A stretch of 64,000 bases of DNA from NCBI RefSeq assembly GCF_055900595.2, contig NZ_CM148325.1, one strand, 5' to 3'. The notes beneath the pieces were generated by a model. It did not search any database, had not been told where the DNA came from, and was given only the letters and a program-made list of their open reading frames with translations. Shown here piece by piece: positions 2 through 34,256 of the stretch (its first letter is position 1; every line of letters starts with the position of its first letter). A program made the position numbers and the translations under genes.

Positions 2-1036
2 ATAGTTCTGCATGTTCGCGCTGATGGCGATTATCTCTCTATCCGTGTGCGTGATACGGGGGTGGGGATTCCGGCGAAAGAAGTGGTGCGCTTGTTTGAT
101 CCCTTCTTCCAGGTCGGCACGGGCGTACAGCGTAACTTCCAGGGGACCGGTCTGGGGCTGGCGATTTGTGAAAAACTGATCAGCATGATGGACGGCGACA
201 TCTCGGTAGATTCAGAACCGGGAATGGGCAGCCAGTTTACCGTGCGTATTCCGTTGTACGGCGCTCAGTACCCGCAGAAAAAAGGCGTGGAAGGGTTGAG
301 TGGTAAACGCTGCTGGCTGGCGGTCCGCAATGCGTCGCTCTGTCAGTTCCTGGAAACCAGTTTGCAGCGTAGCGGCATCGTCGTTACAACATACGAAGGG
401 CAGGAACCGACTCCCGAAGATGTGTTAATCACTGACGAGGTAGTGAGCAAAAAATGGCAGGGTAGAGCGGTAGTGACCTTCTGTCGTCGCCATATTGGTA
501 TTCCGCTGGAGAAAGCGCCAGGGGAGTGGGTACACAGTGTGGCTGCACCGCATGAGCTACCGGCATTGTTGGCGCGTATTTATTTGATCGAGATGGAGAG
601 CGATGATCCTGCTAACGCTCTGCCGTCGACGGACAAAGCGGTCAGCGATAACGACGATATGATGATTCTGGTCGTGGATGATCATCCGATTAACCGGCGT
701 CTGCTTGCAGATCAGTTGGGATCGTTGGGCTATCAATGTAAAACCGCGAATGATGGCGTCGATGCGCTTAATGTACTTAGCAAGAATCATATTGATATCG
801 TGCTTAGCGACGTCAACATGCCAAATATGGATGGTTACCGCTTGACGCAACGCATTCGTCAGTTGGGGCTGACGTTGCCGGTAATCGGAGTAACTGCTAA
901 TGCGCTGGCTGAAGAGAAGCAGCGGTGTCTGGAGTCCGGTATGGACAGTTGCCTGTCGAAGCCGGTAACGCTGGATGTTATAAAACAGACACTGACGGTA
1001 TATGCCGAGAGGGTCAGGAAATCGCGGGAATCGTAG
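2..1036 (+). CDS. rcsC: Hybrid sensor histidine kinase RcsC, C-terminal part (5' end lies outside the window)
   Basis: Frame continues from window edge (…LHVRADGDYLSIRVRDTGVGIPAKE…); HATPase G-box GTGLGLAICEKLI; C-terminal receiver domain ILVVDDHPINRRLL…DIVLSDVNMPNMDGY; convergent with rcsB as in E. coli. Confidence 0.95.
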   Translation: MVLHVRADGDYLSIRVRDTGVGIPAKEVVRLFDPFFQVGTGVQRNFQGTGLGLAICEKLISMMDGDISVDSEPGMGSQFTVRIPLYGAQYPQKKGVEGLSGKRCWLAVRNASLCQFLETSLQRSGIVVTTYEGQEPTPEDVLITDEVVSKKWQGRAVVTFCRRHIGIPLEKAPGEWVHSVAAPHELPALLARIYLIEMESDDPANALPSTDKAVSDNDDMMILVVDDHPINRRLLADQLGSLGYQCKTANDGVDALNVLSKNHIDIVLSDVNMPNMDGYRLTQRIRQLGLTLPVIGVTANALAEEKQRCLESGMDSCLSKPVTLDVIKQTLTVYAERVRKSRES

Positions 1037-1250
1037 GCTTATAAGACATTTACGCCGCATCTGGCATTCAGTGCAAATGCCAGACGCGACGCTGGTGCGT
1101 CTTATCTGGCCTACTTTGTTGTAATCCATTGAAATAATGGGAATCGTAGGCCGGATGAGGCGTTTACGCCGCATCCGGCATTCAGTGCAAATGCCAGATG
1201 CGACGCTGACGCGTCTTATCTGGCCTACAGATGATTAGTCTTTATCTGCC
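1027..1250. repeat. REP/BIME-type palindromic repeat, about 112-bp unit in two tandem copies; first copy includes the last 10 nt of rcsC
   Basis: gggaatcgtagg…gccgcatc(t/c)ggcattcagtgcaaatgccagacgcgacgctg…cgtcttatctggcctac occurs twice (from about 1027 and 1139); imperfect palindromes typical of REP elements between convergent genes. Confidence 0.8.
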
Positions 1251-4886: not shown

Positions 4887-4979
4887 AAAAAAAACCGGAT
4901 GCGAGGCATCCGGTTGAAATAGGGGTAAACAGACATTCAGAAATGAATGACGGTAATAAATAAAGTTAATGATGATAGC
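4887..4979 (-). ncRNA. micF: MicF antisense sRNA (about 93 nt) divergent from ompC
   Basis: Reverse complement reads GCTATCATCATTAACTTTATTTATTACCGTCATTCATTTCTGAATGTCTGTTTACCCCTATTTCAACCGGATGCCTCGCATCCGGTTTTTTTT, which matches my memory of micF including its terminator hairpin and U-tract. Confidence 0.9.
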
Positions 4980-5134
4980 GGGAGATATTCTAGTTGCGAG
5001 TGAAGGTTTTGTTTTGACATTCAGTGCTGTCAAATACTTAAGAATAAGTTATTGATTTTAACCTTGAATTATTATTGCTTGATGTTAGGTGCTTATTTCG
5101 CCATTCCGCAATAATCTTAAAAAGTTCCCTTGTA

Positions 5135-12984: not shown

Positions 12985-13460
12985 TGCCACATCCGGCATG
13001 GTATGCCGGATGTGGCGTATGCTGATAAGACGCGCCAGCGTCGCATCAGTCAACCGGCTCGGGCGTTAGATCGGATGCGGCGTAACCGCCTTATCCGACC
13101 TACGGGGTGGAGCACTTCACAGCGGTGTAGGCCTGATAAGACGCGCCAGCGTCGCATCAGGCTACCGGCTTGGGCGTTAGATGTCGGATGCGGCGTGACC
13201 GCCTTATCCGACCTACGGGGTGGAGCACTTCACAGCGGTGTAGGCCTGATAAGACGCGCCAGCGTCGCATCAGGCAACCGGCTCGGGCGTTAGATGTCGG
13301 ATGCGGCGTGACCGCCTTATCCGACCTACGGGGTGGAGCACTTCACAGCGGTGTAGGCCTGATAAGATGCGTCAGCGTCGCATCAGTCAACCGGCTTGGG
13401 CGTTAGATGTCGGATGCGGCGTGACCGCCTTATCCGACCTACGGGGTGCCACACTTCACG
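12985..13460. repeat. Tandem REP/BIME array, four copies of an about 113-bp unit
   Basis: Unit gcctgataagacgcgccagcgtcgcatcag…gggcgttagatgtcggatgcggcgtgaccgccttatccgacctacggggtggagcacttcacagcggtgtag repeated from about 13017, 13131, 13245 and 13357 with a few substitutions. Confidence 0.9.
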
Positions 13461-13465
13461 GCAGT

Positions 13466-13954
13466 TTAGCGGACTACCGCGTTGTCAATTTTCTCTTCCG
13501 CCTTCCAGATGCGGTATTTCACATCTACATTGTCTGGCGTATACACCACGATCGGCAGCTTGCTGTTGTAACGCAGCATTCCAGCATCGCCCAGATACGC
13601 GGTGACAAATTTCTTCTCTTTCTTGCCATCCGGGCAGGCCATCATCGTGGAAACCGGCGAGCTAACTTTATCAAAGACGTAATAATCATAGCCCCAGCCT
13701 TCCAGCGTTTTGCTTTCCAGCTTCCCGCCGAGACGATGCAAATTGCAATCGACTTCCAGCGTCTGACCGATTAACAGTTCTACTTTCAGGGTAGATTCAT
13801 CTTCTTGCGGGGTTAACTGAATCACCTGACGCTTCATGCCTTTTTCAGCTTGCGGATAAGGCGCGATTTTTTCCAGTGGCTGGACGCTCTCTGCCGCCCA
13901 GGCGGAAGTGGTAGCGAAAGCGGCAAACAATACTGCAGGTAGAATGGTCTTCAT
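13466..13954 (-). CDS. eco: Ecotin (periplasmic serine protease inhibitor), 162 aa
   Basis: Signal peptide [20 protein letters not shown]; ecotin-like sequence …[20 protein letters not shown]…; position between mqo and napF. Confidence 0.95.
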
Positions 13955-30375: not shown

Positions 30376-30452
30376 TGGTCGGCACGAGAGGATTTGAACC
30401 TCCGACCCCCGACACCCCATGACGGTGCGCTACCAGGCTGCGCTACGTGCCG
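30376..30452 (-). tRNA. proL: tRNA-Pro (anticodon GGG)
   Basis: Reverse complement reads CGGCACGTAGCGCAGCCTGGTAGCGCACCGTCATGGGGTGTCGGGGGTCGGAGGTTCAAATCCTCTCGTGCCGACCA; cloverleaf with anticodon loop CATGGGGTG and 3' CCA. Confidence 0.95.

Positions 30453-33863: not shown

Positions 33864-34256
<393 letters not shown>

Follow-up and report, generated by a model that had tools for sequence, protein, structure and literature searches.

The spacer between the convergent rcsC and rcsB genes is very probably the E. coli element REP162, a BIME-2-type array in which two ~114-bp units stand in tandem and the linker between them carries a copy of the end of the rcsC coding sequence. This degree of confidence is a joint one and applies to our best explanation as a whole, i.e., to the anatomy of the array, the founding duplication, its later dynamics, and its inferred function. 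The window (the whole 64-kb stretch of DNA that was analyzed) opens on the 3' part of rcsC, encoding a sensor kinase (1–1036, + strand; ORF 47–1036), which is followed on the − strand by rcsB, encoding a response regulator (1235–1885, stop codon 1235–1237); both genes are annotated in matching E. coli records. The spacer that separates them is 198 nt long (1037–1234), and the rcsC stop codon TAG (1034–1036) is part of the GTAG with which the first REP starts. The name REP162 was taken from the supplement of a preprint (bioRxiv 10.64898/2026.03.23.713779). No REP feature is present in the rcsC/rcsB spacer in the K-12 annotation NC_000913.3, and a search for papers on an rcsB-rcsC REP found nothing relevant.

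The string GGGAATCGTAGG is present in exactly two copies in the window (1026–1037 and 1139–1150), which bears out the preliminary description in that the end of rcsC, including its TAG, recurs downstream. The spacing needs correction from ~112 bp to 113 nt between these two occurrences, with a repeat period of 113/114, and the quoted string, said to be the last nucleotides of the gene, is 12 nt long, of which 11 belong to rcsC (eight coding bases and TAG) and the final G to the spacer. Because a 12-mer with two mismatches is common in shuffled sequences (3.6 matches expected), and hence not rare alone, the evidence for the repeat sits in its register. A repeat search gave a 21-nt match (1018–1038 and 1131–1151, 18/21 identical) and, in a common register with it, a 74-nt match (1041–1114 and 1155–1228, 91%), so that the repeat covers ~97 nt (1018–1114 and 1131–1228). 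Tandem Repeats Finder reported no repeat at this locus, even at a minimum score of 30.

The repeated unit had been described as containing a REP, which is correct, but it holds a pair of inverted REPs instead of a single one. Each unit opens with a Y-type REP whose first bases are GTAG, followed by an 11-nt head-to-head linker (TTCAGTGCAAA) and an inverted Z2-type REP that ends with CTAC. On the + strand, unit 1 comprises the Y-type REP at 1033–1066, placed by alignment with other E. coli alleles, the linker at 1067–1077, and the Z2-type REP at 1078–1114; the same elements of unit 2 are located at 1146–1180, 1181–1191, and 1192–1228. A tail-to-tail linker, also given on the + strand, joins the two units. 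Its left half (TTTGTTGTAATCCATT, 1115–1130) is A/T-rich and locus-specific, and its right half (GAAATAATGGGAATC, 1131–1145) is the copy of the rcsC terminus. The four imperfect palindromes measure 30–40 nt and have the conserved GTAG 5' of the stem foot, as in the definition of REPs given in PMC3333891. They belong to a multi-copy, extragenic family represented in the window by 12 REPs at five loci, and their sole coding overlap at the rcsC/rcsB locus is the rcsC stop codon. A 501-nt query (900–1400) found a median of three places per E. coli genome.

In the portion of Ton-Hoang et al. (2012; PMC3333891) that summarizes the Gilson/Bachellier nomenclature, BIME-2 elements are tandem copies whose number varies between strains. 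The rcsC/rcsB array shares with this family the inverted y and z2 REPs, a short S linker (11 nt between Y and Z), tandem copies conserved within the locus, and a copy number that differs between strains (1, 2, 3, or 5). It is distinguished by having two units here and by a tail-to-tail linker that is partly traced to the coding end of the adjacent gene. The array is an already catalogued BIME-2 element and not a new one, and its tandem organization and its copy-number variation between strains are already published properties of BIME-2. REP162 of K-12 is found at the same locus; it has the same architecture of two Y/Z2 units in a spacer of 199 nt, with GAAATAATGGGAATC in the linker. It differs from the array analyzed here in that the 501-nt query is 93.6% identical, and in that the 5' arm of the unit-1 Y REP is decayed in the window, where GCTTATAAGACAT is found versus GACGGATAAGGCG in K-12, with several substitutions and a 1-nt deletion (1033–1046). 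The two units are 88% identical over their 82/83-nt cores in the window and 92–96% identical in other alleles, and the extra divergence of unit 1 in the window is a lineage-specific decay. This strain has lost the small hairpin at the rcsC stop codon, and the long whole-unit hairpin is still predicted. Records at least 99% identical to the window over 900–1400 numbered 12 out of 5,428.

The assignment of the inverted REPs to type Z2 and not Z1 was judged solely via the Rfam naRNA4 model of a Y-Z2 pair (RF02564). This model matched unit 2 end to end (1149–1225) with 81.6 bits, above the gathering score of 59.5, and gave 45.6 bits on unit 1, below it. Such a match could be taken as a sign that the units form a functional small RNA, naRNA-like and binding HU; alternatively, they could encode the 33-aa ORF at 1137–1238, whose ATG is located in the linker copy and which stays open as far as a TAG at 1236–1238. 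We hold both possibilities to be very improbable, since the naRNA4 model merely describes the Y-Z2 REP pair and the role of naRNA4 in the nucleoid is disputed (bioRxiv 10.64898/2026.03.23.713779), and since the ORF consists of REP sequence, has no ribosome-binding site on inspection, and has a similar counterpart called in a five-unit array. This ORF, which runs on the + strand from the rcsC-end copy through unit 2 and whose TAG overlaps the rcsB stop codon on the opposite strand, is probably spurious. REP325, the naRNA4 element at yjdM-yjdN, has the same Y-Z2 pair as the rcsC/rcsB array; it differs in being composed of six units between tandem genes and in its head-to-head linker, 13 nt in the model versus TTCAGTGCAAA here.

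The last 15 coding bases of rcsC before the GTAG of the REP (GAAATCGCGGGAATC, 1018–1032, + strand), the source of the copy, are identical to GAAATAATGGGAATC at 12 of 15 positions in a fixed register (binomial p = 1.2e-5). Self-alignment accordingly showed a similarity that reaches 15 nt past the REP into rcsC, beyond the generic REP consensus. The 5' flanks of ten REPs at three other loci of the window are unrelated to this rcsC-end flank, and the flank GAAAT...GGGAATC does not stand 5' of any other REP in the window. A 40-nt query over the 31-nt inter-unit linker matched the E. coli genomes at a median of one place each, always at the rcsC/rcsB locus; the linker is therefore not a dispersed BIME motif. 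It had been proposed that the duplicate includes the rcsC terminus, and the register statistic, the different flanks of the other REPs, and the locus-unique linker all bear this out. Similarity limited to the generic REP consensus, with the match to the rcsC terminus arising by chance, would be in keeping with the GTAGGC of every REP and with the frequency in shuffles noted above for a 12-mer with two mismatches. This explanation is refuted by the 12/15 identity in fixed register, by the unrelated flanks of the ten other REPs, and by the conservation of the linker copy across divergent lineages, and we give it next to no weight.

The left half of the linker has another status. Compared with the rcsB-side flank, it matched at 5/16 positions (p = 0.37), which does not support a duplication of the rcsB terminus, and pairwise alignment detected no similarity with the sequence upstream of 1018; there was likewise no similarity to indicate that the 16 nt upstream of the rcsC copy formed part of the duplicated segment. 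Because this 16-nt left half (1115–1130) matches neither flank, the founding event may not have been a plain head-to-tail duplication: a simple tandem duplication does not account for these nucleotides.

The direction of the copying was deduced from outgroups. Among the matches listed, the spacers of Citrobacter, Enterobacter, Kluyvera, Pseudocitrobacter, and others were 33–128 nt long and did not contain the linker copy, and many of them held an A-run/hairpin/T-run terminator. Since these outgroups, which have no array, keep the rcsC coding end AAA.CGCGGG.A (for example AAG TCG CGG GAA TAA in Kluyvera), copying went from the gene end into the spacer. The first REP directly adjoins rcsC, whose TAG stop codon is provided by the conserved GTAG. 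We suggest that, in an Escherichia ancestor, a single duplication took in both the unit and the last ~15 nt of rcsC; this would have left a 31-nt inter-unit spacer ending in a copy of the rcsC terminus.

The reverse, in which a mobile BIME inserted into rcsC and its own flank became the last codons of the gene, would be in line with the length of RcsC, which is 949 aa in Escherichia versus 948 aa in Citrobacter, Enterobacter, and the group that we presume to be Salmonella. A published REP consensus moreover reaches CTACGA, which is TCGTAG on the other strand, so that the REP could be the origin of the last codon, TCG, and of the TAG stop. However, GAAATCGCGGGAA encodes K-S-R-E, which is conserved in REP-less outgroups such as Kluyvera (AAGTCGCGGGAATAA), and Pseudocitrobacter ends with ...GAGTCGTAG and has no REP, which leaves the final TCG-TAG as the most that a REP could have contributed. 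We thus find a landing of this kind improbable and retain the rcsC end as the origin of the linker copy. As to the termini themselves, the 949-aa RcsC of Escherichia ends with RES-TAG, and the 948-aa proteins of Citrobacter, Enterobacter, and the presumed Salmonella group end with R-(A/G/T/V)-TAA. The TCGTAG end of the REP could have supplied both the additional TCG codon and the TAG of rcsC; a RES-stop without a REP, as seen in Pseudocitrobacter, runs counter to this.

The age of the duplication was approached with divergent lineages retrieved by exact look-ups of RcsB variants. The linker copy is present in two Escherichia-like lineages with an rcsC 3' end 94% identical to that of the window (L102 and L105) and in three others with 86.5–87% identity (L106, L108, and L110), for example as GAAATAATGGAATTTGTAGG. 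A very abundant group with RcsB A213T/D216E is presumably Salmonella, as judged from the RcsB C-terminus. Its rcsC is 77.5% identical, encodes 948 aa, and stops with TAA, and its 102-nt spacer lacks the linker copy and has its REPs arranged differently. Because divergent Escherichia-like lineages carry the copy and non-Escherichia relatives are without it, the duplication is older than the splits within Escherichia and younger than the split from sister genera. Its description as ancient is supported by these data. In three of the divergent lineages (L102, L108, and L110), the second unit has an internal deletion that fuses its outer arms, with the centre of the palindrome collapsed.

A comparison of the spacer across other E. 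coli strains, which had been proposed as a check, located the linker copy in 4436 of 5426 complete genomes; two units are carried by ~81% of them all. Single-unit alleles have an 85-nt spacer and were seen in 7 of the 39 rcsC-rcsB rows of a spread listing and in two of ten contigs; extrapolation from such samples, as distinct from a genome-by-genome count, puts them at roughly 18% of E. coli genomes. The places found by the linker query exceed the records by 35, and at most 35 genomes can therefore have three or more units. SBF45, with three units, is the only confirmed three-unit case in E. coli, and L105, whose rcsC is 94% identical, has five tandem units in a 541-nt spacer (L105 1852–2392). 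A 55-aa ORF was called by the gene caller inside this five-unit array.

The single-unit alleles fall into two chimeric classes, either unit-1-like throughout or with the left of unit 1 joined to the right of unit 2, and the middle unit of SBF45 is also chimeric. Chimeric units are the pattern predicted by unequal homologous exchange, and we propose that the 114-bp repeats underwent slippage or unequal homologous recombination, giving rise to arrays of 1, 2, 3, or 5 units, gene conversion then shuffling sequence between units. Unit 2 of the window is 98% identical to unit 1 of K-12 and 92% identical to unit 2 of K-12, unit 1 of L091 is identical to unit 2 of L093, and the units within L105 or within L106 are closer to each other than to their positional counterparts elsewhere. 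Gene conversion thus homogenizes the units, and it blurs which of them is the original. Because copy number still changes and units are homogenized in this way, the divergence between units is no clock.

Both the duplication and the changes in copy number might instead be the work of the TnpA-REP/RAYT transposase cutting at C|T sites. TnpA-REP cleaves and joins BIMEs and linkers in vitro and has been proposed as the cause of BIME-2 amplification (PMC3333891), and the unexplained 16-nt half-linker would fit a non-homologous event. The breakpoints of the chimeric single- and three-unit alleles, on the other hand, lie inside homologous stretches, and the top strand has no CT dinucleotide at the left boundary (1011–1037). 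On the bottom strand, a CC|T is found one base off this boundary. An origin by transposase seems unlikely to us, and homologous recombination or slippage is the mechanism that we prefer.

The preliminary description had also suggested an influence of the array on the 3' ends of both mRNAs. The predicted folds of the two strands reach −100 and −107 kcal/mol (z = −7.2 and −9.8), and a unit is predicted to fold, on either strand, as two hairpins or as one long hairpin. A search for a canonical intrinsic terminator in the spacer gave one weak consensus hit, no better than in shuffles, and the G+C hairpin followed by a U tract on each strand that characterizes an intrinsic bidirectional terminator is absent. 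In several non-Escherichia genera (L013, L016–L019, L028, and L030), the spacer contains an intrinsic terminator of the classic bidirectional kind, with an A-run, a G+C hairpin, and a T-run, and, in Escherichia, REP hairpins without U tracts stand in its place.

Previously mapped bidirectional terminators were cross-referenced to REPs in a table of bioRxiv 10.64898/2026.03.23.713779, and its supplement lists two K-12 segments, 2316832–2316874 and 2316942–2316985, as bidirectional terminators at rcsB:rcsD:rcsC, REP162. They correspond to ~1188–1230 and ~1077–1120 of the window, that is, to the Z hairpins of unit 2 and unit 1, respectively. As both Z hairpins of K-12 REP162 are listed as bidirectional termination sites, a role in 3'-end formation is plausible, as had been suggested. 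The same preprint reports that REP325 is a partial Rho-dependent terminator and a stabilizer of mRNA, and that convergent gene pairs with a REP are more highly expressed. From the literature on K-12 and on REPs, we infer that the hairpins would serve as 3'-end structures on both sides, for the convergent rcsC and rcsD-rcsB mRNAs, by terminating transcription in part and by impeding 3' exonucleases.

According to the passage of PMC12306157 that summarizes earlier work, REPs located at most 15 nt from a stop codon stall ribosomes. The distance from the rcsC stop codon to the first REP is zero, and the first hairpin, which begins at the stop codon, may slow the termination of rcsC translation. 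Judging from the decayed 5' arm of the stop-proximal Y hairpin, stalling at the rcsC stop codon may be weaker in this strain than in K-12. DNA gyrase is known to bind some BIME-2 arrays, a subset of which is enriched in gyrase sites (PMC6379681), and rcsB/rcsC is not mentioned in the supplements of that paper or of the RepRanger paper. As a speculation to which we attach a low probability, REP162 might be a strain-variable dial on the RcsC:RcsB ratio, set by how many units are present (1 to 5) and by the condition of the first hairpin, in which the stop codon is embedded. If so, such a dial would act via the efficiency of termination, the stability of 3' ends, and the stalling of ribosomes at the rcsC stop codon, and would contribute to differences between lineages in Rcs envelope-stress and capsule signalling.

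Our analysis makes a modest addition to what is known of REP162, namely that its repeat period holds a traceable copy of the coding end of the adjacent gene, and beyond annotation, this finding matters little. The polymorphism of one to five copies at convergent signalling genes nonetheless offers a natural allelic series for claims that REPs tune 3' ends. A second BIME-2-type array in the window was compared with the first: REP161 (eco-mqo; ~12985–13470) consists of four Y/Z units repeated in tandem every 113 nt, and its linker GGGGTGGAGCACTTCACAGCGGT resembles its right flank GGGGTGCCACACTTCACGGCAGT, so that a flank is again found in the repeat period. It differs from the rcsC/rcsB array by an unrelated linker sequence, a longer head-to-head linker, and the lack of overlap with a stop codon. 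Because the rcsC array and the eco-mqo array both carry a flank in their period, these sequences suggest that the locus-specific linkers of BIME-2 may be built from host flanks upon duplication of a unit. Of the four units of the REP161 array, three reach the gathering score of the Rfam naRNA4 model. Ahead of this array stands a perfect hairpin, GCCACATCCGGCAT...ATGCCGGATGTGGC, which matches the eco:mqo entry labelled REP161 in the table of the preprint. Elsewhere in the window, Rfam hits at the gathering score were obtained for the MicF sRNA (4887–4980, − strand, 116.8 bits), a tRNA (30379–30452, − strand), and an L25 ribosomal protein leader (34170–34195, − strand).
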